Shown in pieces: positions 21,349 through 42,766 of a DNA stretch of 64,000 nt. The notes beneath the pieces were generated by a model, which was not told the origin of the DNA, did not search any database, and saw only the letters and a list, made by a program, of their open reading frames with translations. This stretch comes from Prochlorococcus sp. AG-355-B18. GTDB lineage: Bacteria > Cyanobacteriota > Cyanobacteriia > PCC-6307 > Cyanobiaceae. How positions within the stretch are numbered: position 1 is the first letter of the stretch; every line of letters begins with the position of its first letter. The stretch is from contig QCDI01000001.1 of NCBI GenBank assembly GCA_003280965.1, positions 64,001 to 128,000 on the forward strand, read 5' to 3'. The position numbers were made by a program, and so were the translations under genes.

Positions 21349-21987
21349 ATGTGTGGAAGATTTGAGCTGAAAACTAAGTTTGCAAATTTGCCAGAGGTTT
21401 TGAAACAGGACTATCCCATAGGACTTGATTCTAAATACGAGACTCAAAGTTTAATTAGACCAACTGATCCTGTTCTTGTAATTAAAAACGAAGGAAGAAT
21501 TAAAACTACTTTTATGGCATGGGGCTTTATTTCTCCTTGGGCTAAAGATCCATTTGATAAAAAGAGACCAAGACCATTTAATGCAAGATCAGAAACGGTA
21601 GAAGAAAAAAAATTATTTAGTAGAAGTTGGAAACACAAAAGGTGTTTAATACCAGCTAGTGGTTTTTTTGAAAAGAAATATCGTATTCGAAAGGAGAATT
21701 ATGACACTTTTTGGTTAGGAGGAATCTGGAGTAAGTGGACCTCACCAGATGGCGCTGAACTTGAAAGTTGCTGTGTTTTAACAACTGAACCAAATGCTTT
21801 AGTTAAACCTCTTCATAATCGTATGCCTGTTGTAGTCCCTAATGGGTATGAGGAACAGTGGACAGAGCAAGTTAAAGATTCTGATGAAATAAAAGGTTTA
21901 CTTCCAATTTTGATGGGTTGGTCACCCCATGGATGGCTGGTAGAGGATGTAAAGAAAAAAGAAACTGATCAAATTAGTTTGTTTTAA
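21349..21987 (+). CDS. SOS response-associated peptidase (SRAP/YedK family)
   Basis: MCGRF N-terminus, FNARSET, RCLIPASGFFE, HNRMPV. Confidence 0.93.
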   Translation: MCGRFELKTKFANLPEVLKQDYPIGLDSKYETQSLIRPTDPVLVIKNEGRIKTTFMAWGFISPWAKDPFDKKRPRPFNARSETVEEKKLFSRSWKHKRCLIPASGFFEKKYRIRKENYDTFWLGGIWSKWTSPDGAELESCCVLTTEPNALVKPLHNRMPVVVPNGYEEQWTEQVKDSDEIKGLLPILMGWSPHGWLVEDVKKKETDQISLF

Positions 21988-23257: not shown

Positions 23258-23470
23258 ATGAAAAGGTTACTTTTTGGTGAGCTTTTGATAGTTTTAATTA
23301 CTATAGTTTTTATTTATCTAAAACCAATTTCTAGAATTTATGTCGCTGATTATTTGGAAAAGATATCTTTATTTTTGTTTAGAACTGTCAGTGATGAAGA
23401 TTTAAATGAGTGGTATGAGAGAAGAGATAAATATAAATTACTTGAGAAATTAGGAGGGTCTTCTTATTAA
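23258..23470 (+). CDS. Hypothetical protein starting MKRLL
   Basis: ATG abuts the upstream TAA. Confidence 0.55.
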   Translation: MKRLLFGELLIVLITIVFIYLKPISRIYVADYLEKISLFLFRTVSDEDLNEWYERRDKYKLLEKLGGSSY

Positions 23471-25865: not shown

Positions 25866-26147
25866 ATGCTTTTTTTAATTTCTTATAAGTTCTCTGATGC
25901 GACCGCGCAAGAGAAGGGAGCTAAAATGCTAACAGAATAGTACGACAAAGGAGGACCGCAAAATAGACCAGAGAATTATGACGTAAAATCTTGGATTTTC
26001 TTACCTCAACATGGAAACGGTTACTCTGTTGTAGATACAGATTCTTTAGAAACTATTTGGCGTCAATGGCGACCTTGGAGAGAATTAATGGAGATTACTA
26101 TTGAACCTTGTGCCGATTTAGATGAAGTAGTAGCTCTATATCGTTAA
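25866..26147 (+). pseudogene. DUF3303-like protein with internal stop
   Basis: MLFLISYKFSD...LTE*YDKGGP...IWRQWRPWRELMEITIEPCADLDE; TAG at 25938-25940. Confidence 0.7.
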
Positions 26148-26293
26148 TGAAACGCATACTAATTTGCACTGCTAATAGTTGGCAATTGAGATTCTATATT
26201 AAATAATTCCTCTAGCAGAAGTATTCATTTCAAGATCCTTAACTCAATTTTAAATAATTTATCCTAGAAAAGGTTAGTGAATTTATTAATCAA

Positions 26294-29491: not shown

Positions 29492-29743
29492 CTATTTTTT
29501 AGCCCCTGTTTTAATAATATTTTTTCTTCTAAATTGAATATTTGCTGATATTTTTTCCGCCAAAGTTGGAAGATTTGGTGGCTCCAGCATAAGATAAACT
29601 CTTCCTGATTTTTCTAAATAAATATAGTCTTCTAATAAGTTTCTGTTGAGAAGTCGATAGATTGTTTTGGTGGATTTATAGCCTAATTTTTTTGCTGCAT
29701 GGCTAATCGTAAAAGCTTCAATTTCGAATGACTTTGGTTTCAT
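29492..29743 (-). CDS. Excisionase-like HTH DNA-binding protein
   Basis: FTISHAAKKLGYKSTKTIYRLL. Confidence 0.65.
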   Translation of the reverse strand: MKPKSFEIEAFTISHAAKKLGYKSTKTIYRLLNRNLLEDYIYLEKSGRVYLMLEPPNLPTLAEKISANIQFRRKNIIKTGAKK

Positions 29744-30027
29744 AATATTCTGTTTGATTCCTATAAGTAGAGTATCCAAATCTCTTTAATCTTCTTTGAT
29801 GTAATTCCCAATTTTTAGTATTTATATCTGGGCTTTTAAGTTCCCTTTCATATTGAATAGTTCGATAACTCTTAACACCATTTTTTTTTTCTTAATGCAG
29901 AAGTAAACCCAATAACTGATAAAAAAAATATAAGTACTATTACAAATCCAACTGTACTTTCAATATCTATTTTGTCCTGATATTCCTCTAATGAACTTTT
30001 AGTAGTTGCTATAAAAATTTTTTTCAT
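29718..30027 (-). pseudogene. Frameshifted paralog of 4884-5174
   Basis: TM N-terminus, shift in A10 run (29881-29890), then SPDINTKNWELHQRRLKRFGYSTY. Confidence 0.6.
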
Positions 30028-30065
30028 TTATATGATCGGTGCAAGTAGTGAGCGTTTCATTTTAT

Positions 30066-30326
30066 TTAAAAATCATCAATAATATTTAAAGTTAGATAAT
30101 CATTTATTTGATCTACATTAACTAAATTTCTTGATGTCATTATTGAAGGAATAAAGACGCAAGTTATGATCAATGAAGCAAAAGTTAGTCCATATACTTT
30201 CGGTTTTAACCTAAAACCTTTTAGCCTTTTATGTAAAAAATCTAAGTTAAATTTTTTTGATTCTTGCTTATAAGAAAGTGCATTCTCAATCATTTGATTA
30301 AGACGTTCCTTTTTTAATTTAGACAT
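30066..30326 (-). CDS. Putative anti-sigma factor (single TM)
   Basis: Overlaps the sigma-factor stop; one TM helix. Confidence 0.55.
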   Translation of the reverse strand: MSKLKKERLNQMIENALSYKQESKKFNLDFLHKRLKGFRLKPKVYGLTFASLIITCVFIPSIMTSRNLVNVDQINDYLTLNIIDDF

Positions 30327-30870
30327 ACAATAATTCCTCCAATAAATCCTTAGGCAAAATAGTTTTTAATTTTTTGCGAGCCCGTATAATTAGGCTTTCA
30401 GTAGCTTTTTCAGTTTTTTTTAAAATATTAGACACTTCCTTCTGTTTGTAACCACAAAAATAATGTAGCAGAATTGCTTCTTTTTGATGTGTAGGAAGTT
30501 TTTGAATATTATTCAATAGCATTTTTCTTAATTCATAATTACTGTTGTTATTTGTAATTTCTAGATTGGAATAATAATCTTTAAATTCATTGGAGCTTTT
30601 ATGTCTTCTTAGGAAATCCATACAAGTTGAAAACACTATCTTATAAACATATCCTTCAACACTTCCTTTATTTACCCAACGAGGAGCTGATTGCCAAATT
30701 TTAATTAAAGAAATTTGTACTACATCATCTGCATCGTCAAAATGCGTTGAACCCAAAAATTTAATTGCTGTTGCATGCATTTTGTATCCCAAAGCATTTG
30801 CTATAAAACGGAAGGATTCCTTATCACCCTTAGCAGTTTTAAGCATATAAGAGTTTAATTCCTCAGACAT
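30319..30870 (-). CDS. ECF (group 4) sigma-70 factor
   Basis: GDKESF...DADDVVQ...IW (region 2), LPTHQKEAILLHYFCGYKQKEVS...RARKKL (region 4); 183 aa. Confidence 0.9.
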   Translation of the reverse strand: MSEELNSYMLKTAKGDKESFRFIANALGYKMHATAIKFLGSTHFDDADDVVQISLIKIWQSAPRWVNKGSVEGYVYKIVFSTCMDFLRRHKSSNEFKDYYSNLEITNNNSNYELRKMLLNNIQKLPTHQKEAILLHYFCGYKQKEVSNILKKTEKATESLIIRARKKLKTILPKDLLEELLYV

Positions 30871-30873
30871 TCT

Positions 30874-31173
30874 TTACTTCTCTTTATTCCTAAATTTTAA
30901 CCTTTTTCTTAATTCATACCTAAGTGCGCGTAATTCTTTTTTTGATAATTTACTATCAGCATTTTTATCAAAGTTTATAAATATTTTATCTATTCGAGCA
31001 CTATGAGCTGACATCATTTCGTCTTTTGAGAGAAGTCCATCTCCATTAGTATCTATCCTTTGAAAACGCCCACGCATCTTCATAAAATTATTCTTCTCAT
31101 AGATTGGATTGGCATAAGAGGGCAGTGCAATAAAAAAGCTCAATGCCAAAATTAAAATTGAAGAGTTTTTCAT
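30874..31173 (-). CDS. Secreted EF-hand protein
   Basis: Signal peptide; DTNGDGLLSKDE and DKNADSKLSKKE loops. Confidence 0.88.
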   Translation of the reverse strand: MKNSSILILALSFFIALPSYANPIYEKNNFMKMRGRFQRIDTNGDGLLSKDEMMSAHSARIDKIFINFDKNADSKLSKKELRALRYELRKRLKFRNKEK

Positions 31174-31232
31174 AAAGGTAATTAATATCTATAAATCATT
31201 AACGCAAAAATTGATAAAATCCTTCGCGAAAT

Positions 31233-31313
31233 CAATAAGGAGCTAAATGCATCTTATTTTAGATCGACTGTCAATTGTAATTAATATAGCTGTGCAAGTA
31301 GTAAGCGTTTCAT
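31233..31313 (-). repeat. Composite cassette-boundary repeat (B + A)
   Basis: ATGAAACGCTTACTACTTGCACAGCTATATTAATTACAA-TTGACAGTCGATCTAAAATAAGATGCATTTAGCTCCTTATT. Confidence 0.85.
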
Positions 31314-31726
31314 CTAGGAAGTATTCTATTTAATTCGGGATATTCAATTCTTAATTCTTCTATAAATGCATCAACGGTCTTTGATATCTCGTCAGTAGTA
31401 TTCAAAATAGAATTTTTATATTTTAGATATTCGGAAACTTGAAATAATTTCATAGTTGATTTTGTTAAAAGTAATGTTGCAAGAGGAGATTTATCTGCCA
31501 ATTTAGTTGAAGGAAAATATTTTATAGTTTCAGGATAAGTTTTTTCCATATCCTCAATATAGTCTTCTATCTTTTCATTTAATTCATCATATTTTGATGA
31601 TAAAAACTTTTTGGTATTTAAATATTCAAAACCTGCGAATAAAAAACCAATAGGAAAACTTAAAAATAATATTGAAAGAGAAAGCCTAAGAAGATTTTGG
31701 GAAAATTTTTCCATAGAAATAATCAA
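31310..31726 (-). CDS. Hypothetical protein, N-terminal TM
   Basis: Stop TGA lies inside repeat B. Confidence 0.6.
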   Translation of the reverse strand: MIISMEKFSQNLLRLSLSILFLSFPIGFLFAGFEYLNTKKFLSSKYDELNEKIEDYIEDMEKTYPETIKYFPSTKLADKSPLATLLLTKSTMKLFQVSEYLKYKNSILNTTDEISKTVDAFIEELRIEYPELNRILPR

Positions 31727-31825
31727 TTAAATTTATTTAAAACATATCAAGGTTAAAAGTAAGTAAAGCATGTAATATTTTTGCTTTCTTCTTCCGATCC
31801 ACTGAAATATTTAATTTTTATAATT

Positions 31826-31880
31826 TCTATATCGACTGTCAATCGTATTTAATATAGCGGTGCAATTAGTAAGCGTTTCA
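31826..31880 (-). repeat. Composite cassette-boundary repeat (B + partial A)
   Basis: TGAAACGCTTACTAATTGCACCGCTATATTAAATACGA-TTGACAGTCGATATAG. Confidence 0.85.
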
Positions 31881-32273
31881 GTTTTTATTGTTAACTAATC
31901 CATAGATACATAAAAGAGGATTCACTATCAAAACAATCCAGAAAGGAGGAGGGGGTCCTCCATCAACAATTGTCCCAGCGTTAAAAGTATTAAATAGAGC
32001 TACTGCCAAAAAACAAAACATCAAAGCTAATTCACCTGATAAAACTTTTCTTAAGGAGGCTTTATCTTTAATGGAACTACAAATAATCAATAAAAAACCT
32101 ATTCCTAAATTACTAGCAGCTACAACATCTGCAGTACCTCTAACAAGAAGCAATGTTTCACTTGAAGCGTTGCCTGCAATAGTTTCCACTGAAAAAATTA
32201 GTAGAGAAATAATTAACAACCCCAACAGGATATGAAGCGCTCCAGTAGTTTTTAAAATATTTTTTAACTTCAT
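31878..32273 (-). CDS. Four-TM membrane protein, paralog of 20580-20975
   Basis: Direct comparison; bracketed by repeats A and B. Confidence 0.8.
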   Translation of the reverse strand: MKLKNILKTTGALHILLGLLIISLLIFSVETIAGNASSETLLLVRGTADVVAASNLGIGFLLIICSSIKDKASLRKVLSGELALMFCFLAVALFNTFNAGTIVDGGPPPPFWIVLIVNPLLCIYGLVNNKN

Positions 32274-32317
32274 AAAAAAAGGAGCTTATTTCCCCCTTAT
32301 TGTAGATCGACTGTCAA
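32274..32317 (-). repeat. Cassette repeat A
   Basis: TTGACAGTCGATCTACAATAAGGGGGAAATAAGCTCCTTTTTTT then ATG. Confidence 0.9.
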
Positions 32318-32371
32318 ATTAATCTGTTTAAAAATATCTACTGTTAATATGAATTAAATTTTTAAATTAAG

Positions 32372-32629
32372 TTGGTTTACTTTAAGAGAGAGTTTATTAA
32401 ATCCCTTAAAATAAAAGGCTCTATATTTTTAATTGTGATAATTATTGGATTTATTTACTCAAGTCCAAAGTCAAGGGTAATTATTGCAAATTCTTTTACT
32501 TCTTCAGCCAAATTTTTAAATGAAACTGTCGAAACAAAAAATAAAGATAGTTGGTTTTCTGAACCAGATTTCGTATTCAGTATTAGGTTAAGATTACGAG
32601 AATTTTTAAGAGGAACTCAAAGAGGTTGA
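32372..32629 (+). CDS. Hypothetical protein
   Basis: ORF track, one TM. Confidence 0.4.
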   Translation: MVYFKREFIKSLKIKGSIFLIVIIIGFIYSSPKSRVIIANSFTSSAKFLNETVETKNKDSWFSEPDFVFSIRLRLREFLRGTQRG

Positions 32630-32668
32630 AAAAGAAATAATTGCCCCTTATTGTAGATCGACTGTCAA
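32630..32668 (-). repeat. Cassette repeat A
   Basis: TTGACAGTCGATCTACAATAAGGGGCAATTATTTCTTTT. Confidence 0.85.
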
Positions 32669-32782
32669 TAATTGAAGTCTTACGTTGACTTATATAGCTC
32701 AAAAAAACGTCACATAGAGTTTGACGATTATGGAAAATTTAGACGAAATGCTGCTAAAACTTAAAAAGTTATTACTTATAAA

Positions 32783-33052
32783 ATGTTTTTAGGTGCATCT
32801 GTATTTTTTATTGTTGGATTCCCGATTCTTGGAATATTTATTCTTCTGGCAATGATGCTAAACAAGTTAGATAGTATAAGTAGATCAAATAAATTACTTC
32901 TTGCCTATATGGTTAATCCTGATTGTATGTTGGAGGCTACTAATTCCGATGTAGTTATTAGTAATGCAATGAAAGCGGCTAAAAAATATAAAGGTGAATC
33001 TGCACAAGTAAAAGAATTTTTTAACCAAATAAACCCACTTATTGTTTTTTAG
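32783..33052 (+). CDS. Hypothetical membrane-anchored protein
   Basis: ATG ORF. Confidence 0.5.
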   Translation: MFLGASVFFIVGFPILGIFILLAMMLNKLDSISRSNKLLLAYMVNPDCMLEATNSDVVISNAMKAAKKYKGESAQVKEFFNQINPLIVF

Positions 33053-33188
33053 TTCCCATTGGGAATAGTTCGGGAAGTGGTGTTTTGTTATTCATACCAA
33101 TAGATATAGTCCTATTCCTTCCCGATAGATAGAGATAGGGGTATTTTTTAGGAGCTATCTCTATGTCATGGGAACTAGGAACACTAAA

Positions 33189-34433
33189 TTAGTTGATATA
33201 ACTACTGTTTGATGACTTCCCTATAGTATTTACTGGGTAATGATCGGGAACTGATAGTTTTTGTATATCTTTTGGATTTAAAGCATAAACACCTTTTTTA
33301 GGTCTTCTTAGCTTTTTACTATTAACCATATTGCCAAGCGTATTATCTACAGTTTTTCTTGCTGCGGAAGCAATATTAAATGCAGTAGTGACAATATCAG
33401 CCCTTCTTACTTCTGTTTGTCCTTGTTTATAGAAATCGCTCATAATTTCAAGAATTACATCATTGCAACTTCCCACTATTTCTTTATCGTCTTCTAGTAC
33501 CATTTCGCACTCTTCCAATCTATAAGTAACACGCCTTCTAGGATCTATATTTGCTGCTCTATCTTTCTTAAATTCAGCAGTTACCCCATTTTGTACCTTT
33601 GTATCTTCATCAATGTTTGGTTTTAAACTAATAACCATTGATGGTTCTTCAGCCCAACTTTTAGCCCCTGCATGAGCACCTCTAGCAGTTCCGTCATGGC
33701 TCAAAATTTCAATATGAGCATTATTAGGTACAGCAATAACGTCTCTTATGACCCTTATAAAATCTCTTACCTGTACATTATCTAAGTAGTTAAATGCACC
33801 AGAACTAATACTTTTTGCACTATCAATAACCACATAATCAATACCTTCATATTGGACAAAATTTTCTAATTTAATAATTCCATTGATATTTCCATACAAT
33901 GCCTGTTGTCCTTGTTTAGAGTCAAAACCCCATACAAATATTTTTTGTTCTTCACCTTCTTTCAATACAGCATCATTTTCAATTCCTAAGTCATACATGG
34001 CTTTTTTAAAAGTACTTACCCCACCATCTGTACAAATAAATAAACTTTTACCTTTTTTACATGGTGAACTTCTATCTAAAATATTTTCACCTTTTGCAAA
34101 TTTATAGGCTTTATATAATGCGTGGGTTGTTTTGCCAGAACCATAAGAACCATAGGTTAAAGAAACATCACCTTTTATTAACCACCCGTCCATTAAATAG
34201 GTAAGAGGTTCAACAGTTGTTAGGTCAATAGATTTTTTTAAAGCAGGTCTAAAATCTGACTTCATGTGATAAAAATATTTCATCACTTTTCTTGTTATTT
34301 GATCGTCAGAATATTTAAACCTTTGTTTTATCAAGCTATAAATTCTTGCTTCTTCATCTTCATCTACCTGTCTAATTGCAGCTAATAAATCATCAATTAA
34401 AAAGGTAATTTTCTCTTCTTCATAAGAGTTCAT
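33189..34433 (-). CDS. AAA_25/RepA-like replicative helicase
   Basis: YLMDGWLIKGDVSLTYGSYGSGKTT Walker A, YVVIDS Walker B, C-terminal winged-helix-like region. Confidence 0.8.
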   Translation of the reverse strand: MNSYEEEKITFLIDDLLAAIRQVDEDEEARIYSLIKQRFKYSDDQITRKVMKYFYHMKSDFRPALKKSIDLTTVEPLTYLMDGWLIKGDVSLTYGSYGSGKTTHALYKAYKFAKGENILDRSSPCKKGKSLFICTDGGVSTFKKAMYDLGIENDAVLKEGEEQKIFVWGFDSKQGQQALYGNINGIIKLENFVQYEGIDYVVIDSAKSISSGAFNYLDNVQVRDFIRVIRDVIAVPNNAHIEILSHDGTARGAHAGAKSWAEEPSMVISLKPNIDEDTKVQNGVTAEFKKDRAANIDPRRRVTYRLEECEMVLEDDKEIVGSCNDVILEIMSDFYKQGQTEVRRADIVTTAFNIASAARKTVDNTLGNMVNSKKLRRPKKGVYALNPKDIQKLSVPDHYPVNTIGKSSNSSYIN

Positions 34434-34697
34434 TTAGACCCCCATTTTCTCATAGGAAGCAATCTTCTTGGCAGCTACATCTTCAGGTACATTTTCAGAT
34501 TCTTTTGTTTTATCAATCTGCCATTGTCGAATAGCTCTTACATTCCAAAGAACATTGCTCTTAGGTTTACCAGTTATATATAGCCAATGTTCACCAGCTA
34601 TAAATTCATTGGAGTTTTTAAGTTCCCATAATAAAGATTGGCTTACGCCAATAAGTTCTGATGTCTTTGCGACACCATGCCATTCAGTTAAGTTCAT
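34434..34697 (-). CDS. Excisionase/AlpA-like HTH protein
   Basis: WHGVAKTSELIGVSQSLLWELK...GEHW; resembles 41847-42107. Confidence 0.7.
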   Translation of the reverse strand: MNLTEWHGVAKTSELIGVSQSLLWELKNSNEFIAGEHWLYITGKPKSNVLWNVRAIRQWQIDKTKESENVPEDVAAKKIASYEKMGV

Positions 34698-35107
34698 TAG
34701 ATTAGTTATGTAATATCGGTAGCCCTTGCACAACTAACTCTTTGCCCGAACACACAGTAAATAAGTAGAGGAGTTTTCAGTTGATAGTTCGGTGGCGTTA
34801 AAACGCTAGCTGATTCTGACGGAACTCTTGCCCCCTTCTTTTTCCGATTTAACGGGAGGTTCTTTAAGACAAGTCGATCGCTACGAAGCCCCTCTGATGA
34901 CTTCTTTCTATTCAATATTATTAGGCAATAATTTAGAACTGTCTAGAAGTTTGTGGGAAAGGCAAGAAGCATAGGGGTATACCCGTTAGATATAGTCCAG
35001 TTTCTTTTACTAGCTATCCCATTCTTATCCCACAACCAAAATTTAAAATTCAAAGCAATAAAAAAGAGAGTCTGGGTAACTCTCTAGTATAACTTGGTTT
35101 TTAAGAG

Positions 35108-35153
35108 TCGGGGCGACAGGATTCGAACCTGCGACCTAGTGCTCCCAAAGCAC
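35108..35153 (-). repeat. att site: 46-bp duplicate of the tRNA-Pro 3' half
   Basis: TCGGGGCGACAGGATTCGAACCTGCGACCTAGTGCTCCCAAAGCAC, identical to 42693-42738. Confidence 0.97.
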
Positions 35154-35269
35154 TGGACACCCCTAGATGAGCACTGGTGTTACAAGCTATAGCTAATTAA
35201 TTGCGTAGTATTGCGTAATTTGTATAGACAAACTATTATAAATATGACATAAATATGACATAAATTTAA

Positions 35270-36520
35270 ATGATTGATTGGACTGCTAGTTTACAAAAAA
35301 GAGCCAGGAAAATTGCAAGAGAATGTGGCTTAGTTGGTCTTACTCTTATAAAGAATGGTAAGAAGGCACAAGTTAAATATAGAAAGGCTGAAGGTTCAAA
35401 AGTTATATCTCAGGAAACAGTAATGCTTGAACATGAGTGGATTCAAGCTAATGAAGATGATATTTACACCAGATTCAGAAATATATGCAAATTAATGGGA
35501 GAAAGTGGTCATAACTTAAAAGCTGCTGCTGTTATTGCTAAAGGTAATGCACCAAAAGAAGGAAAAGATTGGAAGAATATATTAGAAAGTTTTAAAGATC
35601 AGAAAACCAACTTTGGTAATGCAATAGCTGAGAAGACTTGGAAGAAAGATTATAAGTCTTGCGTAATGGCTGTAGAAGTTATGGCTCAAAAGAATCCTCC
35701 TACTAATGCAGCAGATTTAATAGATGTATGTTTAAAAGATTTTGATGCTGGTAGTAGAACAAGACAGATAAGAGCTAGAGCATTAAGTCAGTTTTTAACT
35801 CATGCAGTTACTAGAGAGAATCTTCCTGATACTTGGCTACCTCCAAAAGATTTAAAACAACATATTGGAAGGGCTAAAAAAGGAGAACTTAAAACCCAGA
35901 AGGGCGACCCATTTAGTGAAGATACCCAAATATTAGATTTATTGGCATCATTACCAACCAATGCAGAATTTAAGCGTGATTCTGAATCTGCTACTAAATG
36001 GTTTAATGCTCTTTGCATGATGAGTGAATTAGGTTTAAGACCTAATGAAGTTGGGAAGATGGTTGTTAAAAAAGACCCAGCTACTAAAGAATATTATTGG
36101 TGGTGTACTTATGAGAAGAAAGCTGGTGGTGGTACAACTAAACCTAGAAAAGTTGAGCCATTACCTCTAATAGATAGAGACGGAAAAGAAGTTCAATGGA
36201 ATTTATTAGAAAGATTTAGAAGTAACCTACTTCCATTACCAGAGAAGATGGATGGAGAATCTTGTAAGGATTATTTAAGTAGAAGGCAAGGTTGGAAAGA
36301 TTTAAAAGAAATGATGCTAAAGAAAGAAGGTGCAAATATTGTTCCTTATTCATTCAGGCATTACTACAGCCTTCGAGGTCATATTGCAGGCATTGATTCT
36401 GGAAGTATGGCTAAGAGCATGGGGCATTCAATAGAAGCCCACCATAGAAACTATCCTTATTCTTCAGAAGCAAGTACTACTAACGCATTTAAAAGAGCTA
36501 GAGAAAGAGCTACGGCTTAA
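35270..36520 (+). CDS. Tyrosine recombinase/integrase
   Basis: LGLRPNE (R), YSFRHYY (HxxR variant), MGHS...HHRNY (H, Y). Confidence 0.93.
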   Translation: MIDWTASLQKRARKIARECGLVGLTLIKNGKKAQVKYRKAEGSKVISQETVMLEHEWIQANEDDIYTRFRNICKLMGESGHNLKAAAVIAKGNAPKEGKDWKNILESFKDQKTNFGNAIAEKTWKKDYKSCVMAVEVMAQKNPPTNAADLIDVCLKDFDAGSRTRQIRARALSQFLTHAVTRENLPDTWLPPKDLKQHIGRAKKGELKTQKGDPFSEDTQILDLLASLPTNAEFKRDSESATKWFNALCMMSELGLRPNEVGKMVVKKDPATKEYYWWCTYEKKAGGGTTKPRKVEPLPLIDRDGKEVQWNLLERFRSNLLPLPEKMDGESCKDYLSRRQGWKDLKEMMLKKEGANIVPYSFRHYYSLRGHIAGIDSGSMAKSMGHSIEAHHRNYPYSSEASTTNAFKRARERATA

Positions 36521-36523
36521 TAA

Positions 36524-36566
36524 TTGACAGTCGATCTACAATAAGGGGGAATTAGCTCCTTTTTTT
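36524..36566 (+). repeat. Cassette repeat A
   Basis: TTGACAGTCGATCTACAATAAGGGGGAATTAGCTCCTTTTTTT, 3 nt after the integrase stop and directly before ATG. Confidence 0.9.
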
Positions 36567-36845
36567 ATGTCTCTTGAAACTACTGTTTTTACATTCAAAA
36601 TTAGTGTCCCTTATGAAGAATGGGCTGCTGTTTATGACAGTGAAGAAAATATAAAAATGATGAAAGAAACTGGAATGACATGCTTATACAAAGGTGTAAA
36701 TAAAGATGATCCAACCAGTGTAATTGTCATTGAGCAGGGTGAAGAAGGTAAAGCAATAGCTATGTTTAAAGATCCAGAAGTTAAACCTTTAATTGAGAGT
36801 GCAGGTCATATTTATGATTCGACTGTTATATCAAGCTACTTTTAA
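36567..36845 (+). CDS. DUF3764-like protein (cargo 1)
   Basis: Paralog of 11746-12027. Confidence 0.78.
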   Translation: MSLETTVFTFKISVPYEEWAAVYDSEENIKMMKETGMTCLYKGVNKDDPTSVIVIEQGEEGKAIAMFKDPEVKPLIESAGHIYDSTVISSYF

Positions 36846-36889
36846 TTGACAGTCAATCTAAAATAAAGGGCAATTAGCTCCTTTTTTTT
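36846..36889 (+). repeat. Cassette repeat A
   Basis: TTGACAGTCAATCTAAAATAAAGGGGCAATTAGCTCCTTTTTTTT fills the whole intergenic space. Confidence 0.9.
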
Positions 36890-37180
36890 ATGGAAGCAAT
36901 AGTTATATTATTTTTTTTAGTTCCAATTTTATTTATTGTTTTTCTTGTTTCAGACCCTTTTAAACGTCAACGAGAATTGGCTGCTAATAGAAAGTGGGAT
37001 GGATGGATTAAGGACAGCAAAAAAAATCCTAAGACTTTTTATAAACTTACAAAAGAAGAACAATTGAGTATGGCAAGGTCAAATAGATACGGAACAAATG
37101 AACAAATTGGGAAAAGAGGTGGAAGATATGAAACAAGATATTCTAAAAAAACTGGTAAACCATATAGACATTATTTTTAA
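36890..37180 (+). CDS. Membrane-anchored basic protein (cargo 2)
   Basis: N-terminal TM, GKRGGRY motif. Confidence 0.65.
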   Translation: MEAIVILFFLVPILFIVFLVSDPFKRQRELAANRKWDGWIKDSKKNPKTFYKLTKEEQLSMARSNRYGTNEQIGKRGGRYETRYSKKTGKPYRHYF

Positions 37181-37600
37181 ATGAAACGCTTACTACTCCC
37201 ACTAATAGCAGCCCTCGCTTTACCTACTGCTGTTAATGCTGAAACTTTTTATTTAAAATGCACAACCTTAAAAGGTAGAGGAAATCCTGATAAGCCATTT
37301 AAAACCTTTGCAGATCCAACAGTTGATAATCACCAATTCACATTAAATGAAGATAATCAATCTGCGGTTTACTACCTTGCTGAAAAAGGCACTTCTATAA
37401 AAATAGATAATGTCAACTTCAACCAAGAAAGCATTGATATGAGTTATAAATCAGGAAAAAATTTCTCAGGAGATACTTTTAAGACTATTTCGATTAATAG
37501 ACTAACTGGAGGATTAGTCATGGAATCTGATTTAGGTTTTCAAGTAATGAGGTTTGAGGGTCAATGTAAAAAATCAGAGCCAAAGAAAACTTTGTTTTAA
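37181..37600 (+). CDS. Secreted protein (cargo 3)
   Basis: Signal peptide MKRLLLPLIAALALPTAVNA; INRLTG...GQC. Confidence 0.75.
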   Translation: MKRLLLPLIAALALPTAVNAETFYLKCTTLKGRGNPDKPFKTFADPTVDNHQFTLNEDNQSAVYYLAEKGTSIKIDNVNFNQESIDMSYKSGKNFSGDTFKTISINRLTGGLVMESDLGFQVMRFEGQCKKSEPKKTLF

Positions 37601-37624
37601 ATGAAACGCTTACTACTTGCATAA
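37601..37624 (+). repeat. Cassette repeat B (MKRLLLA*)
   Basis: ATGAAACGCTTACTACTTGCATAA abutting the cargo 3 stop. Confidence 0.85.
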
Positions 37625-37896
37625 AAAAGAGGGTAAAGCTGCACCAAAACCCTCTTGAATACCACACCGTCAAAATCCAATGGCTACATTGAAGTGACTC
37701 ACTTTTATGATAGCTAGAATATTATTTTTGTAGTATAATTTCAATAATTAAATATTATTTAGTGACTTTAAATAAACAAATTAAATATAAACAATTTAAC
37801 GAAGTTTATCAAGTCAAAGCCTGCAAAGTTGGGCAACTATATGATACTTTATCCAACCCACAAGCTAGAAGATTAATTAAGGAGGTTTCCTAAAAG

Positions 37897-38292
37897 ATGG
37901 ATTTAAACGAATTAATTGATAAAACCCACTTCGATTATGAACAAAACGAAACAAAAGCAAAGCAGTTAGAAGAACGAATTTTGAAAGTGCCTGGAATGTT
38001 AAAAGAGTATCTTCCTAAGAGAAAATATGGGGAAAATTATAAAGGCGACCAACTAGGTGTAACTGCATCATCTTTAATAGTTAAAGGAGATAAAGCCCTA
38101 GCAGCTTTCTTAGGACTTGACCTTAATTATTGGAAAGAAAAAGCAAAAGCTGAAGAAGAACGTGAAGCCTACTTAACCGCCTTTAAAGAAAAGACAGAAG
38201 CACTAAGACAAAAGAATCAGGAACAAAGAATGGCTAGAGAAAAAAGAACTATATGGAATCAAACTCATGGTGTAGATCAAAGGAGGTTTTAA
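37897..38292 (+). CDS. Hypothetical protein with coiled-coil C-terminus
   Basis: AGGAGG upstream; first gene of a tightly coupled four-gene operon. Confidence 0.75.
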   Translation: MDLNELIDKTHFDYEQNETKAKQLEERILKVPGMLKEYLPKRKYGENYKGDQLGVTASSLIVKGDKALAAFLGLDLNYWKEKAKAEEEREAYLTAFKEKTEALRQKNQEQRMAREKRTIWNQTHGVDQRRF

Positions 38293-38631
38293 ATGCGTTT
38301 TGCAAGACAGCACCCTTATTACGGTTGGTTGTTTTTAGAACCTGCCGATTATCGAAGGATATATAACCAACTTATTCAAATGAGAGATGCAGATATAAAG
38401 AAGGGGGATAACTCCTCAGGGTTTCCCTCTGGTTTTCCTGAGTGGTGTGAAGATGATATTAAAGAATTAGCCAAAGAAGATAAATATAAAAAACGCATAG
38501 CTACCCACTTAGAGCAATTAAAAATTTCTATTGAAAATAGAAGAAGAGAACTTGCTAACACCTACCTAGCTGAAGAACTTAAAAAGATGGAAACCAAATC
38601 TGAATTTATAGAAAGTTTAGTAGGTTCTTAA
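38293..38631 (+). CDS. Hypothetical protein
   Basis: AGGAGG RBS, abuts upstream stop. Confidence 0.7.
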   Translation: MRFARQHPYYGWLFLEPADYRRIYNQLIQMRDADIKKGDNSSGFPSGFPEWCEDDIKELAKEDKYKKRIATHLEQLKISIENRRRELANTYLAEELKKMETKSEFIESLVGS

Positions 38632-38843
38632 TGCACACAGATAAACCAACTATTTCTTTAGAGGTTCAAGCCTTATCAGAATGTTTAAAGGTTATCGCAG
38701 AAAATGATTACACCTATACAGCGTGTCCTTTGACCATCTCCCTTTTTGCTACTTCTTGGGTCTGGACTTGTAGAGATATTATGGAGAACTATTTATGGCC
38801 AGCAGAAGATTTATTGGAGCTACAACATGGCGATAGTAAGTAG
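38631..38843 (+). CDS. Hypothetical protein
   Basis: TAATG coupling. Confidence 0.6.
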   Translation: MHTDKPTISLEVQALSECLKVIAENDYTYTACPLTISLFATSWVWTCRDIMENYLWPAEDLLELQHGDSK

Positions 38844-39192
38844 AGCAGAACGAAAAAGACGTAGATGTGTTGCTCTCGAGAGATTAACCTCTGGCATGGG
38901 GGTGTCTGAAGTAACCAGAACGCTAGTCAGGGACTACGGAATTACTCGTAGAAGTGCGAATCTGGATATCAACTGGGCAAGTGCTCAAATGATAAAGAAC
39001 CTCGAGAAGTACGAGAAAAGTGATCTGTTGGCATGGCTTGTGACCCAGACTGAGAGGGTATATATTAAAGCCCTGGAATCTAACCAATTAAGTGCAGCTA
39101 TAGGAAGTTTGAATTTAATGCACAAGATTACGATTGAAGCAGCAGATAAAGGAACAGGCAAATATAGATTTCATGGAAACTATAAACATTAA
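38827..39192 (+). CDS. HTH protein, terminase small subunit-like
   Basis: GGAG RBS and ATG 38827; N-terminal HTH (YGITRRSA), C-terminal VYIKALESNQLSAAIGSLNLMHKI helix pair. Confidence 0.55.
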   Translation: MAIVSRAERKRRRCVALERLTSGMGVSEVTRTLVRDYGITRRSANLDINWASAQMIKNLEKYEKSDLLAWLVTQTERVYIKALESNQLSAAIGSLNLMHKITIEAADKGTGKYRFHGNYKH

Positions 39193-39335
39193 TCTCAGGT
39201 GTCTTGGACACGGTTTTCAAAAAACTGGACACAATTCTGCTTATTTAATCTCAAAGTAAGACGTCAAAACCATTGTAAATTCGTTAATCAGTCTCATTAT
39301 TTATTAGGTGTACTGTCCAACTGACAATACTTTTT

Positions 39336-39507
39336 TGTGGCATTGTGGCTGTGGCACTAGGGGTTTTATATATTTACTACCCTTTTCCTATCCATATCTA
39401 TATATCTATTATTTATATAAAATATATGCCACAAGTGGATAAAACCTACTAAACCCAGTTAGGGAGGTTGATTTAGTCTGTGGCATTATCTGTGGCAGTT
39501 TGTGGCA
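39336..39507. repeat. TGTGGC iterons around an AT-rich tract (putative origin)
   Basis: Copies at 39336, 39344, 39350, 39479, 39491, 39501; inverted copy at 39428. Confidence 0.7.
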
Positions 39508-40834
39508 GTCTTCTATAGATAGAAGTCTTTTCAGTTTTAGTTGTATCATCTAATTCAAACCTAGCTCTCTCTCCTTTTATCCATCCTAATTGTTGAAGTC
39601 TGGTTGCTATTGCTCTTGTATATTTAGCGTCTTTAGTCTTTTGTTGTATCTCGCTATGAATTAATCCTTCATTTAATAATTTAACTACAACTCTTATACA
39701 AATATCATCCCTTTTATAGTTATCCAATGCTTCTTCCATCTCTTCTAGTAATGGGTCATGGGCGGCAAATTGCATGGCCTGATTATTAAGGTCAACTATC
39801 TCTTTCTTGTCATACCACCATCTAACTCCATCTAAATAGTCATTCTTGGCTGAAGCAAATATCTGGTCTCTATGTTCTTGTACCCATTCAGCATTAATCT
39901 TATTGGCACTTATTATTGGAAACCTTCTATTCCCCGTAGGGTCTTTTATAAAGTTTCTTTTATTAGTAGTACCTACGAGAATACACTTTCTATCTTTAAG
40001 AGAGTTGGTCTTTTCATGGGGGTATCTAAAATTATCCTTTTGCTCAGACATAAAGTGCTTAATATTCTCTGAGCTTTGCATACCCATAATGCGATCTATT
40101 TCTCCCCAGTTATGAAACCAAGCAGAGTGCAGGGTAATTAATGTGTCCTTATGATTATTACCACCTATGCTCCCTAGACTTGAGCAATACCATTCTCCTC
40201 CTAATGCTTCCCAGATAGCTTCCTTACCTTCTCCCTGTGAGTCAGTTTGGAGTATTAATGCTGTATCTACCTTGCATGGCTGCTTATAAGTACGAGCTAC
40301 AGCAGCAATCATTTGTCTCTGGAAATGTACTGAATGTTGAGGGTTTTTACTGCCGAAGATATGGAAGGCAATATTATTCCAGGTGTCTTCAGGTAATGGG
40401 TCATTACATCCATTTAGATAGTGTTCTACTGGGTTATATTTATTTCTTTCAGAGAGTAATACAACTACATTCCTCGCATTATTTTCTTTAATATCTAAGC
40501 GATTTTTTTCGGCTAGTTCAAGATAAAAGGTACTTAAGAAGTTACCTGAGATGGGCTTACCATTTAACTCTATCTTTCCAGTAATAGTATTCAGTTTGAA
40601 ATCGTATATATCCCCAATAATTTGAACCAACTTATCTTTTCTTGGTCGGATAAGGCTTTCAACTGCAACTTCTCCTTTTGGCCTTTTCTGTGGTTTGGTT
40701 GTTGGTTTTTCTTCAACAACCTCCGCATCTACCTTCTCAATAAAACTTTCTGTTGCTGTTGGTTCTTTAGAAACAATCTGAGCATCAAACTTTCTTAAAA
40801 AGGGTTCTAAATTTGGGTTATTCAAGTTACTCAT
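39473..40834 (-). CDS. VapE/VirE-family helicase-like protein
   Basis: YNPVEHYL, QGEGK, ILVGTTN, DPTGNRRF, RDQIFA...WW. Confidence 0.88.
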   Translation of the reverse strand: MSNLNNPNLEPFLRKFDAQIVSKEPTATESFIEKVDAEVVEEKPTTKPQKRPKGEVAVESLIRPRKDKLVQIIGDIYDFKLNTITGKIELNGKPISGNFLSTFYLELAEKNRLDIKENNARNVVVLLSERNKYNPVEHYLNGCNDPLPEDTWNNIAFHIFGSKNPQHSVHFQRQMIAAVARTYKQPCKVDTALILQTDSQGEGKEAIWEALGGEWYCSSLGSIGGNNHKDTLITLHSAWFHNWGEIDRIMGMQSSENIKHFMSEQKDNFRYPHEKTNSLKDRKCILVGTTNKRNFIKDPTGNRRFPIISANKINAEWVQEHRDQIFASAKNDYLDGVRWWYDKKEIVDLNNQAMQFAAHDPLLEEMEEALDNYKRDDICIRVVVKLLNEGLIHSEIQQKTKDAKYTRAIATRLQQLGWIKGERARFELDDTTKTEKTSIYRRLPQTATDNATD

Positions 40835-41850
40835 TTTGATTTAGGTCTCCAACCATGTTGTTGAGCTATACGGATAAAAGTGCCTGCCTTTATATGCCCC
40901 TTCCTTGATCTGACTACTTGTTCTACATTCCATCCACTTACTTCACCACTTGGGCTATGAGCTTCTAATAGTTGTATGGCATCAGATTCTGAATAACCCA
41001 TATCAATTAACAGTTCAGTAAAACCCCAAGCCATATTTCTATATTCCTCATAAGTGTTATTTCCTTGAACCCTTGGAGGAATATGATCTAAAGCAACTAT
41101 TATTTCTTCAATTTTCCAATCACTTTGAACTACTTTTGGTTTATTAGGTTTTATTTCTAAAGGTTCAGGTTTTTCTGGTTCTGGTAAACAATCCTCTATA
41201 TCTTTATAGGAATATTCTTTTTGAGTGACGTTGATTAACCTAACTCGTTCTGTATGTTTGCCTTGTTTATTGACGTAATAAAACCCAGGTAAACGCATAA
41301 CCCTAGAAGGGTTTTTAATCATTGGGTCTGACTTGGTGTAATCAACAAGACGTTTCTGAATAGGCTTCCAGATTAGTTGTGATACAGGCTTTTTAAGTAC
41401 CAAATAACTATGAATACTGTTACCTGTTTCGACTTGGAAGGTAGGTTCTGGAAGATTTAATTCCTTCCATTTATAGACTTGTTCTTTTTTTGGAATATCA
41501 TCCCATTCAAAAAAGAAAGCACGACATAGAGTAATTTCAATGTCTTTTGTACCACCATCATTAACGACAAAGTAAATTCCCCTTCCTTCTAAATGAGCAT
41601 TAATAATTGGATCCCAATTTATGTAAATGCCATGACCATTAGGCTTATACTTTGGAAATTTAAATTCTCTGGCTGATAAGCCACCACCTTTATAGGTAAT
41701 GGCTCTCAACTCTGTATCTTCACAATTTTTATGGAGCAATTCCTCTAAAAAGAAAGAAGCGTAATTAAATGCTCCTCCTTTTAGAGTTCTAGCTAGAATA
41801 GTTTTAGAAGTAACTGAACTAGCCCGCCCCGAAAAGGCGGGTTTTTTCAT
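40831..41850 (-). CDS. RepB-type primase with PriCT-2-like C-terminal domain
   Basis: FFFEWDD, PTFQVETGNSIHSY, KNPSRVMRLPG; NTYEEYRN...GTF...A...GW. Confidence 0.82.
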   Translation of the reverse strand: MKKPAFSGRASSVTSKTILARTLKGGAFNYASFFLEELLHKNCEDTELRAITYKGGGLSAREFKFPKYKPNGHGIYINWDPIINAHLEGRGIYFVVNDGGTKDIEITLCRAFFFEWDDIPKKEQVYKWKELNLPEPTFQVETGNSIHSYLVLKKPVSQLIWKPIQKRLVDYTKSDPMIKNPSRVMRLPGFYYVNKQGKHTERVRLINVTQKEYSYKDIEDCLPEPEKPEPLEIKPNKPKVVQSDWKIEEIIVALDHIPPRVQGNNTYEEYRNMAWGFTELLIDMGYSESDAIQLLEAHSPSGEVSGWNVEQVVRSRKGHIKAGTFIRIAQQHGWRPKSK

Positions 41851-42107
41851 GCAGAAGCAACCTCCTTTTTGTTTTTAAAAGGTGCTGTTTCCATAGACTT
41901 TGCTCTTGCACTTGCAAGCCTATTTAAGACTTCATCGCAATTTTCAAGGTCATATAAGGTGTGACTATTTGGGTTTTGTGGAATTTTTCTTCTCCAACAA
42001 GTGCCCTCAATAAGCAAACCTTTATTTCTCATGGTTAGTAAGGTTCGTTCTGAGATACCTAACCAATCTGAAGCCACTTTTTGAGTGACCATTTTTTTCG
42101 CAGCCAT
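41847..42107 (-). CDS. Excisionase/AlpA-like HTH protein
   Basis: VASDWLGISERTLLTMR...GTCWRR. Confidence 0.75.
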   Translation of the reverse strand: MAAKKMVTQKVASDWLGISERTLLTMRNKGLLIEGTCWRRKIPQNPNSHTLYDLENCDEVLNRLASARAKSMETAPFKNKKEVASA

Positions 42108-42125
42108 TTTATGTGGTGGCTAAAT

Positions 42126-42341
42126 CTATTTCTCTATATTTCGTAAGTGACGAGGTATTGCAGTTTCATGCTTTTCCTCAATCAAGCCTTTCTCTCTGGC
42201 ATCTAAATAAGCATCTGCTAGTTCTTGGGTTCTTCCTCTATTGAACTTTGCAGTAGTATCAATAGTTGCTGTATATGCCTTTTTTGGAAGGCGTACAACA
42301 TGACCATTAACCTTTAGATATTTATCAGATTTCTTACTCAT
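42126..42341 (-). CDS. Hypothetical protein
   Basis: First ORF of the xis-primase-helicase operon. Confidence 0.6.
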   Translation of the reverse strand: MSKKSDKYLKVNGHVVRLPKKAYTATIDTTAKFNRGRTQELADAYLDAREKGLIEEKHETAIPRHLRNIEK

Positions 42342-42505
42342 ATTTTAAATAGGGGAGACAATTTCAAACCAATTTCTTGGTTTTAGTTATCCCATGCTCC
42401 CCTTACATTTCTTCAGGGTAGTCCAAGCTAGAGAGGGCTTGGCGACTCTTTCAAAATAGGCGGCGTTTACCTGACCTAAAGTCCAGAATCGAATAATTAC
42501 TATTT

Positions 42506-42543
42506 ACTATAAGGGTAAATTGTGAATGTGCAAGACAATTCAC
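42506..42543 (-). promoter_or_regulatory. Sigma-70 promoter with overlapping inverted repeat
   Basis: TTGCAC-16 nt-TATAGT; GTGAAT-N10-ATTCAC straddles the -35. Confidence 0.55.
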
Positions 42544-42692
42544 GAAATTAATTTTCCTAGTCCCCAACTGGGATATCGAATATCTACAAGTATCAACGCG
42601 AATTAACGCAAAGCTACGCAAATGACATAATTATGACATAAATGCAAATATGTCATATTCTCTAAATACCCCAGACTCATTGCTACAACTGA

Positions 42693-42766
42693 TCGGGGCG
42701 ACAGGATTCGAACCTGCGACCTAGTGCTCCCAAAGCACCCGCGCTACCAAGCTGCGCCACGCCCCG
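42693..42766 (-). tRNA. trnP: tRNA-Pro(UGG)
   Basis: CGGGGCGTGGCGCAGCTTGGTAGCGCGGGTGCTT-TGG-GAGCACTAGGTCGCAGGTTCGAATCCTGTCGCCCCGA. Confidence 0.98.

Follow-up and report, generated by a model that had tools for sequence, protein, structure and literature searches.

A signal-peptide-coding repeat as a probable joint for the exchange of small accessory genes in Prochlorococcus islands

In this study, we analyzed a 64,000-nucleotide (nt) stretch of Prochlorococcus sp. AG-355-B18 (GenBank assembly GCA_003280965.1, contig QCDI01000001.1, positions 64,001 to 128,000, forward strand), hereafter the window, and compared a short repeat that it carries, repeat B, with copies in other genomes and metagenomic loci. 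B corresponds to the initial 17-21 nt of a signal-peptide sequence 60 nt in length, MKRLLLPLLAALALPTAVNA, and our comparisons suggest that it is quite probably a common joint for the homology-driven exchange of small accessory genes in Prochlorococcus islands. A sequence-only reading of the window had proposed B as a recombination junction; two-way shuffling between loci supports this proposal and refines its extent, which appears to be the whole 60 nt for protein heads and 17-21 nt for truncated copies, with crossovers at varying places.

Seven copies of B lie in the window, all of them -4 to +5 nt relative to a stop codon. A 21-mer pattern matched five of these at up to three mismatches (30060, 31313 and 31881 on the minus strand, 37181 and 37601 on the plus strand), whereas none of 100 shuffles gave a match (mean 0.00, maximum 0). 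The copy at 26147 holds an extra T and was detected with the 17-mer only (one mismatch), and the degenerate copy at 23258, which reads ATGAAAAGGTTACTTTT, was recognised by a shorter motif or by its translation. The offset from B to the stop is 0 at 23258, 37181 and 37601, -1 at 26147 and +5 at 30060; at 31313 and 31881 it is -4, and B's own TGA is the stop of the upstream gene, as had been claimed for two cases. The mini-open reading frames (mini-ORFs) described earlier, MKRLLLA, MKRLLLAQLY and MKRSLLAPII, each followed by a stop, read as written, but the 31881 copy has a CTG start and hence no ATG, and the 26147 copy reads MKRILICTANSWQLRFYIK and then a stop. The source genome contains 24 matches to the 17-mer at up to two mismatches in about 10 clusters, several placed 2-3 kb from tRNA genes. 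The copies and the gene that B heads are as follows (aa, amino acids).

23258..23278 (+): degenerate B heading a 70-aa ORF, straight after the stop of the DUF3804 gene
26147..26168 (+): B with an inserted T, 1-nt overlap with the upstream stop, 19-codon mini-ORF
30040..30060 (-): truncated B, MKRSLLAPII then stop, 5 nt past the stop of gene 30066-30326; the next ATG comes directly after its own stop
31293..31313 (-): truncated B, MKRLLLAQLY then stop; its TGA ends gene 31310-31726; repeat A 38 nt past the ATG
31861..31881 (-): truncated B with a CTG start; its TGA is the stop of gene 31878-32273; degenerate A at +38
37181..37240 (+): complete signal-peptide head of 60 nt, B and tail together, MKRLLLPLIAALALPTAVNA; the ATG abuts the stop of gene 36890-37180
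37181..37600 (+): B-headed gene, 139 aa; mature part predicted to be an all-beta barrel, recurring elsewhere behind unrelated genes
37601..37621 (+): terminal truncated B, MKRLLLA then stop, straight after a stop; closes the cargo array
37627..37656 (+): 8-bp hairpin 3' of the terminal B, possibly terminator-like (weak; z -1.5 over a 101-nt stretch)

B appears to be the front part of a 60-nt module common to unrelated proteins, since the mature parts behind it fall in many unrelated blastp families. The complete B-headed ORFs over all loci (n = 160, median 123 aa) form 60 families; when one representative of each was scanned against Pfam, any match was found for 8 of the 60, and four passed the curated cut-off (SdiA-regulated, SNase, Amidohydro_2 and FtsH_ext). 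Metagenome genes chosen by the 3' tail of the signal peptide showed, among the matches listed, conservation that starts at the ATG and ends just past AVNA, and the 99 testable mature parts behind it fall in 40 families. The sharp breakpoint with unrelated mature domains behind it, suggested earlier as a check, therefore lies directly after AVNA. By eye, the layout MKR / LLLPLIAALAL / PTAVNA is that of a putative signal peptide for Sec and signal peptidase I.

The codons of the module are strongly constrained, as the same reading had asked of MKRLLL starts, in samples chosen without the use of B's DNA. The background values of the source genome are 2.1% of Arg codons for CGC and 11.6% of Leu codons for CTA. 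Among the matches listed, codon 3 is CGC in 72 of the 108 tail-chosen metagenome genes, CTA stands at codons 5, 8 and 9 in 86, 89 and 85 of them, and TAA precedes the start directly in 40; choosing genes by the tail biases these counts toward the commonest allele. CGC also occupies 20 of 33 genomic ATG sites translating as MKR plus three hydrophobic residues (8 of 13 for such ORFs of at least 70 aa) and 23 of 32 matches to a codon-degenerate peptide pattern. A second head type, MRKLLIPLL, has the same tail and is frequent after repeat A, and one mature domain carries both head types (loci L229 and L232).

In the amidohydrolase family, B-type heads are found in six homologs at 88-91%, where they run into a c-region specific to the family, and most homologs at 79% or less have other signal-like N-termini (53 of 120 listed homologs compared). 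B thus seems to have replaced an existing signal peptide in this, the single family traced to outside homologs; a second family traced outward gave just one match at E<=1e-30. The earlier suggestion that B supplies a signal peptide to incoming ORFs holds as far as the supply is concerned, but the amidohydrolase seems to have had a prior signal peptide rather than to have been cytoplasmic. De novo gain of secretion through B is unsupported in this family, in which the more distant homologs are mostly signal-like already.

Comparisons between loci were based on 397 distinct B copies from the source genome and loci L015-L303, of which 183 head at least 50 aa (long copies) and 193 under 30 aa (short copies). 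Six foreign-titled and 14 viral loci were excluded; four foreign-looking untitled loci (L095, L108, L122 and L133) are in the 397-copy set and were removed before the family, allele, mosaic and gene-end analyses. Shared upstream DNA with unrelated downstream DNA was found in 198 pairs (39 upstream clusters), in which identity extends into B and then ends: after less than 15 nt in 17 pairs, 15-22 nt in 108, 23-30 nt in 27, 31-63 nt in 35 and more than 63 nt in 11. The reverse arrangement, shared downstream and unrelated upstream DNA, was found in 78 pairs (33 clusters), and identity starts -8 to +2 from the ATG in 66 of them. In other loci, B also comes after the ends of the window's 131-aa, 138-aa, 86-aa and DUF3804 genes, and the DNA past it differs; behind the DUF3804 gene, an intact B leads into five different sequences.

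The gene at 37181-37600 illustrates this shuffling. Among 284 other genus genomes, two contain its mature part (at 100% and 92% over 341 nt), and in both recurrences of the 37241-37597 domain (L342 and L343) the upstream gene is unrelated, the signal-peptide allele is different and other DNA lies past the trailing B. L343 and L072 have the same upstream gene and are identical through nt 59 of the signal peptide, but their mature domains are unrelated, and L342 and L343 have the signal peptide in common in its 3' part only; because these mosaics switch at different positions, crossovers seem to fall at several places in the 60 nt. Another mature domain, identical over the 114 nt compared, carries four signal-peptide alleles behind four unrelated genes. 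Signal-peptide alleles appear to be mosaic and able to travel with the upstream gene. The 37241-37597 domain was modeled as a nine-strand beta barrel (pLDDT 89.7) with two invariant cysteines; it had no Pfam, NCBIfam or PHROG match, no Foldseek match at E<=0.001 and Atlas scores below 0.9. Its best structural match (Z 9.4, root-mean-square deviation 3.0, 91 aligned) stands among many tied beta-barrels, and the avidin/lipocalin-like matches to the model, being tied, point to no function.

Short copies are truncated at varying lengths of about 18-30 nt, many unrelated sequences begin at nt 18-21 of B, and past codon 6-7 the mini-ORFs vary freely in length and sequence; 67 of 159 short-copy types have neither A nor an ORF behind them. 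This sample is biased by selection on B, and the remnant-length comparison is descriptive only. An offset of 0, -1 or -4 to a stop was found for 96 of 183 long and 82 of 193 short copies; such spacing is thus more frequent around B (94 of 178 copies) than it is genome-wide (25 of 95), although redundancy among copies makes this difference no more than suggestive. The idea that the reverse strand of B gives TAG or TAA stops to convergent genes was rejected, as it applied to 2 of 159 short-copy types.

Non-coding copies are common in other genomes, as the sequence-only reading had expected: besides the 193 short copies, B was found in 30 of the 30 closest loci at one orthologous non-coding site, though without a preceding stop. 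This site was located by a neighboring reverse-strand gene, with three listed matches and the source genome's own site not included. Diversity among the 30 loci is 0.017 at nt 2-17, compared with 0.077 at the third codon positions of the neighboring gene and 0.26 at nt 0-1; the ATG is not conserved (A in 23 of 30), and eight downstream sequence clusters follow past nt 21. Among 20 more distant loci, B is recognisable in 15, with a diversity of 0.17 vs. 0.24. The DNA core thus seems to matter more than the start codon and to be able to decay, and decay in the distant loci is as expected if B is refreshed only while exchanging. Part of the non-coding conservation could come from the promoter of the neighboring gene.

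Repeat A is a 44-nt module between stops and ATGs with a near-palindromic front, ATTGAC-A-GTCGAT. Its consensus over 245 copies is ATTGACAGTCGATC, followed by TAnnnT; next come a short hairpin, which is of one of two types, and a T-run, and the ATG stands at about +43; T18 is kept in 91% of copies, and the T13/A14 positions lie partly within the search motif. We infer that A may be a promoter-terminator. In 51 of 65 A-type short copies of B, A follows 37-39 nt past the ATG. At loci chosen by the integrase, A lies 0-9 nt past the integrase stop in 14 of 29 (the window's included) and overlaps the end of the ORF in one more. In the window, A and B order the genes beside the integrase and in a second array to the left:

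18975, 20535, 21291, 22832 and 23470 (+): further repeat A copies
32669, 31843, 31275 and 25812 (start, -): further repeat A copies
29872..32669 (-): left array, in the order A; A-headed gene (131 aa), B, A; gene (138 aa), B, A; EF-hand, sigma-70 and 86-aa ORF, B; 51-aa ORF
32274..32318 (-): repeat A heading gene 31878-32273
35108..35153 (strand not assigned): 46-nt copy of the tRNA-Pro 3' part (attachment site, att), identical to 42693-42738
35270..36520 (+): tyrosine integrase, 416 aa, inward-facing; weak PF00589 match, no TIGR02249 match
36523..36566 (+): repeat A, 2 nt past the integrase stop
36567..37180 (+): two A-headed cargo genes, DUF3764 (36567-36845) and a 96-aa ORF (36890-37180)
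36845..36889 (+): repeat A separating the DUF3764 gene from gene 36890-37180
39473..42107 (-): replication/excision module with VapE-type helicase, primase-like protein and excisionase; far end of the element
42693..42766 (-): tRNA-Pro(TGG), integration site of the element

The element at 35108-42766, with its tRNA-Pro att, integrase, cargo and replication module, fits the definition of a tycheposon, and the run A-gene-A-gene-B-gene-B (36523-37621) occupies the space between the integrase and the rest of the element. The clade of this integrase is present in 36 of 121 genus genomes. Short copies of B often close a cargo array, because tRNA pieces lie within 700 nt downstream of 27 short copies (160 with at least 500 nt available) vs. 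8 long copies (146 available); upstream, the counts are 11 short and 11 long. After the terminal short B in L055, L149, L330, L054, L104 and L119 there follow integrase-like last codons (by eye) and/or short direct repeats, and the tRNA-Pro att lies 150-170 nt past the terminal B in L055, L149, L104 and L119. Between the att and the integrase start of the window (35200-35265), ATTGCGTA occurs twice and ATAAATATGAC twice plus a partial copy; these direct repeats are probably arm-type binding sites. An Rfam search of 18000-44000 gave tRNA matches plus three weak chance matches only, and repeat A as a tRNA 5' remnant was dropped, no tRNA of the genome matching the hairpin arm well by eye. RNA-derived contigs cover parts of the arrays, which does not by itself demonstrate transcription.

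According to the mechanism that we propose, B works together with A, and the exchanged unit would span two ORFs: the remaining signal peptide and mature domain, then the stop codon and then the next B. Alternatively, the unit after B may be a spacer, repeat A and a gene. The resident copy would provide the incoming unit with a start codon and with some or all of the signal peptide, and the unit would leave a fresh B behind its own stop for a later swap. Truncated copies would be joints that have a promoter module, a terminator or the end of an element as their partner on the downstream side. Swaps may be RecA-type or annealing-type crossovers within 17-60 nt of near-identity, and repeated exchange would keep B uniform. 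New genes might be captured by rare microhomology joins in the Leu-rich h-region and then spread, and tycheposons could carry the arrays between cells. The source genome has recA; it is 99.35% complete and gave no MutS_I, MutL or RecT match, and MutL is found in 0 of 63 near-complete genus genomes. Loss of mismatch repair eases recombination between diverged repeats, and the missing MutS1/MutL may ease the swaps here.

Several points weigh against B as a homology-driven joint. A length of 17-21 nt is short for RecA, and most truncated-copy junctions end at 17-21 nt; the original fusion of stop codons to B also lies outside the explanation. The loci were mostly chosen by B or by the tail, and the pairs are non-independent. 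Allele sharing at nt 1-16 was rare, with 4 shared vs. 357 discordant in upstream-sharing pairs and 4 vs. 155 in downstream-sharing pairs, and such private core variants would be just as compatible with a site that a protein recognises. The assembled contigs, whose joints are ambiguous among repeat copies, showed no circle, empty site or recombination event. Finally, when gene ends known before B were followed, 69 of 572 occurrences lacked a B-like sequence and were joined to an ATG or to A; because gene ends also join ATGs or A in this way, B is not required for gene-precise joins, and gene-precise joining appears to be wider than B. Gene ends bearing B elsewhere join small recurring genes (e.g., MTHMYGIAIT…) stop-to-start in L019, L038, L152, L336, L337, L320 and others. 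A candidate empty site joining A to B, from the context ...ATTAGCTGTTTTTTT directly before ATG, was rejected as the upstream region of a reverse-strand gene; the contig joints 36564 to 37179 and 36889 to 37178 may be the same locus misplaced and were not used as evidence.

An alternative that we consider doubtful takes B and A as sites recognised by a site-specific recombinase, which might be the tyrosine integrase of the tycheposon working on a second substrate, as in integrons but without attC hairpins. The core GAAACGCTTACTACTT persists even where the ATG does not, core variants are private, nt 17 onward tracks the downstream unit and nt 0 the upstream side, and the many unrelated sequences beginning at nt 18-21, the position of A just past the integrase stop and the exact 17-mer in seven genera of the family would all suit such a site. 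However, the switch points of the signal-peptide mosaics differ and reach as far as nt 59, and the two alleles that are informative do not agree on one cut, nt 14 tracking downstream and nt 15 upstream (one family each); a fixed crossover deduced from allele tracking was dropped, as too few alleles are shared. There is also no IntI and no attC-like fold, B is unlike the tRNA-Pro att or the arm repeats by eye, and B is present in 18 of 18 genus genomes compared with 36 of 121 for the integrase clade. We give little credence to B and A as sites of a hairpin-free cassette system, in which a host or tycheposon enzyme would load cargo and plug domains onto an export signal; if true, it would be an integron-like builder of the Prochlorococcus exported proteome.

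Less probable still, B may be no more than the conserved start of a recently expanded exported-protein family, its short copies being neutral deletion leftovers, with shuffling taking place elsewhere (at A, or by stop-start microhomology). The varying truncation lengths, the decay of B at fixed sites in the distant locus set and the stop-to-ATG joins without B agree with this account, and stop-start coupling by itself would hold B-headed genes beside stops. In contrast, the mature parts of the 160 ORFs belong to 60 families, with unrelated Pfam matches, and not to a single one, variability in the 30 close genomes is 4-5 times lower at non-coding B than at synonymous sites, the same mature DNA occurs with as many as four signal-peptide alleles, following four unrelated genes, and downstream DNA switches right behind B where A is uninvolved; the four-allele mosaics and the non-coding conservation largely refute it. 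It is very improbable that B is kept for expression, as a translation-coupling leader, a regulatory mini-ORF or a protein site upstream of promoter A, with recombination as a by-product: the 0/-1/-4 offsets to stops and the regular distance to A would fit, but no part of B is less conserved than the start codon at the orthologous non-coding site, mini-ORFs vary freely past codon 6-7 and many short-copy types have neither A nor an ORF behind them.

The preferred reading, B as a homology-driven joint, resembles several known systems. Integron arrays comprise IntI, attI and attC, with nearly UTR-less small genes of unknown function reshuffled at repeated junctions. Here too, single small-gene arrays lie beside a tyrosine recombinase gene and are reshuffled at repeats; integrons have one fixed crossover, whereas these mosaics switch at several positions. 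The adjacent integrase had no NCBIfam match and TIGR02249 gave 0 matches in the source genome, and 12 strands around B/A junctions, folded as DNA, gave z values of -1.54 to +1.27 with no long hairpin over B. Membership in the integrons fails on IntI and attC.

PeSLs of T4-type phages, in the parts of the reports compared, are short promoter/stem-loop repeats between small unknown genes in hypervariable regions that serve as exchange points, and mini-circles of them have been demonstrated (PMC2839356, PMC4122927). Repeats serve likewise here as exchange points between unrelated sequences, with unrelated genes exchanged between close genomes, and repeat A may have a comparable make-up, with an upstream stop, a promoter-like hexamer, a stem-loop and a start codon; B itself does not have the promoter/stem-loop make-up. 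Unlike these non-coding phage elements, B is coding signal-peptide DNA in a cellular chromosome with the joint inside an ORF, and repeat A has no clear -35/-10 pair at 17 nt. In the lpl cluster of S. aureus, as far as the passages compared describe it, recombination occurs at a conserved stretch inside ORFs, and the unit is the 3' part of one ORF plus the 5' part of the next (PMC2568036). The 5' part of a gene similarly travels with the upstream neighbor in L343/L072, identical through nt 59. However, the lpl genes described there are tandem paralogs that all come from one family and share a conserved region in their centre, compared with the first 17-60 nt in about 60 unrelated families here, and truncated joints here link to promoters, terminators and element ends. 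By analogy, the B system would work like PeSL shuffling and the lpl two-ORF unit while being a member of neither.

The element at 35108-42766 also resembles the tycheposons of a recent preprint in its tRNA-Pro att, inward-facing integrase, cargo and far-end replication module (bioRxiv 10.1101/2020.12.28.424599). The passages covered explain integration at tRNAs and leave cargo assembly unaddressed; the main text has 0 occurrences of "integron" or "signal peptide", and its two "repeat" and two "cassette" passages hold no cargo junction repeats. The passages of PMC2151091 that were compared do not describe repeats A and B. In the literature compared we found no description of B or of signal-peptide joints in Prochlorococcus. 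The work of Coleman et al. 2006, outside this comparison, is said to describe PRE1, an approximately 48-nt repeat of Prochlorococcus islands, reportedly with no signal-peptide junction role; repeat A with its ATG (46-48 nt) may be PRE1, or PRE1 may be part of a B-A composite, to judge by the length. As a recombination joint built from signal-peptide DNA, B is well supported, and it would represent a new form of repeat-mediated gene shuffling.

B and A would offer concrete joints for how Prochlorococcus islands and tycheposons gain and reshuffle small cargo genes, the unit of exchange not being the gene. Dozens of unrelated island proteins would begin with the same signal peptide because B/A joints exchange cargo. 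The two repeats may mark cassette boundaries in metagenomes, and a shared B head can falsely connect unrelated proteins in clustering.

B at up to one mismatch is found in the 18 same-genus genomes and in 0 of 12 genomes of other families. The exact 17-mer occurs in 15 of 150 genomes across the family (7 of 42 genera, all at most 1.9 Mb), and the codon-degenerate peptide pattern has its 32 matches in 15 of 151 family genomes; in the larger-genome members searched (>1.9 Mb) neither was found. Among 80 titled loci with the exact 18-mer, 73 are Prochlorococcus, one is Synechococcaceae and six are other taxa. The 63-nt head had no blastn match among 50,697 phage records, and the exact 18-mer is present in 14 viral contigs, all without the signal-peptide tail and 9 in one gene neighborhood; a phage origin of B was dropped, these contigs being taken as unrelated or unresolved. 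In the nine (L001, L002, L004, L005, L008, L009, L011, L012 and L014; 41-43% GC), the 18-mer starts a signal-peptide gene of 165-172 aa in one conserved neighborhood, without the Prochlorococcus tail.

Other features of the arrays deserve mention. The segment 20531-20976 (+) is an inverted duplicate, 86% identical, of 31877-32322 (-), the A-headed 131-aa gene, and the similarity begins at A and stops at the stop codon. A second element remnant lies at 29492-34915 (-), with an AAA_25 primase/helicase (33189-34433), small helix-turn-helix-like ORFs and its own A/B array; no integrase was seen in it. At 30066-31173 (-), an EF-hand gene, a sigma-70 gene (r2 + r4_2, ECF-like) and the 86-aa ORF, a possible anti-sigma factor, form a three-gene cassette between A and B, and an SRAP (HMCES/YedK-type) gene (21349-21987) behaves like a cassette in several genomes, with A on one side and B, either intact or decayed, on the other. 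The end of the 96-aa ORF (37105-37180, …GGRYETRYSKKTGKPYRHYF then stop) recurs in 5 of 284 genomes (loci L336-L340), where the last ~70 nt, at 82-88%, end otherwise dissimilar genes, and this 3' end is a possible shared C-terminal module.

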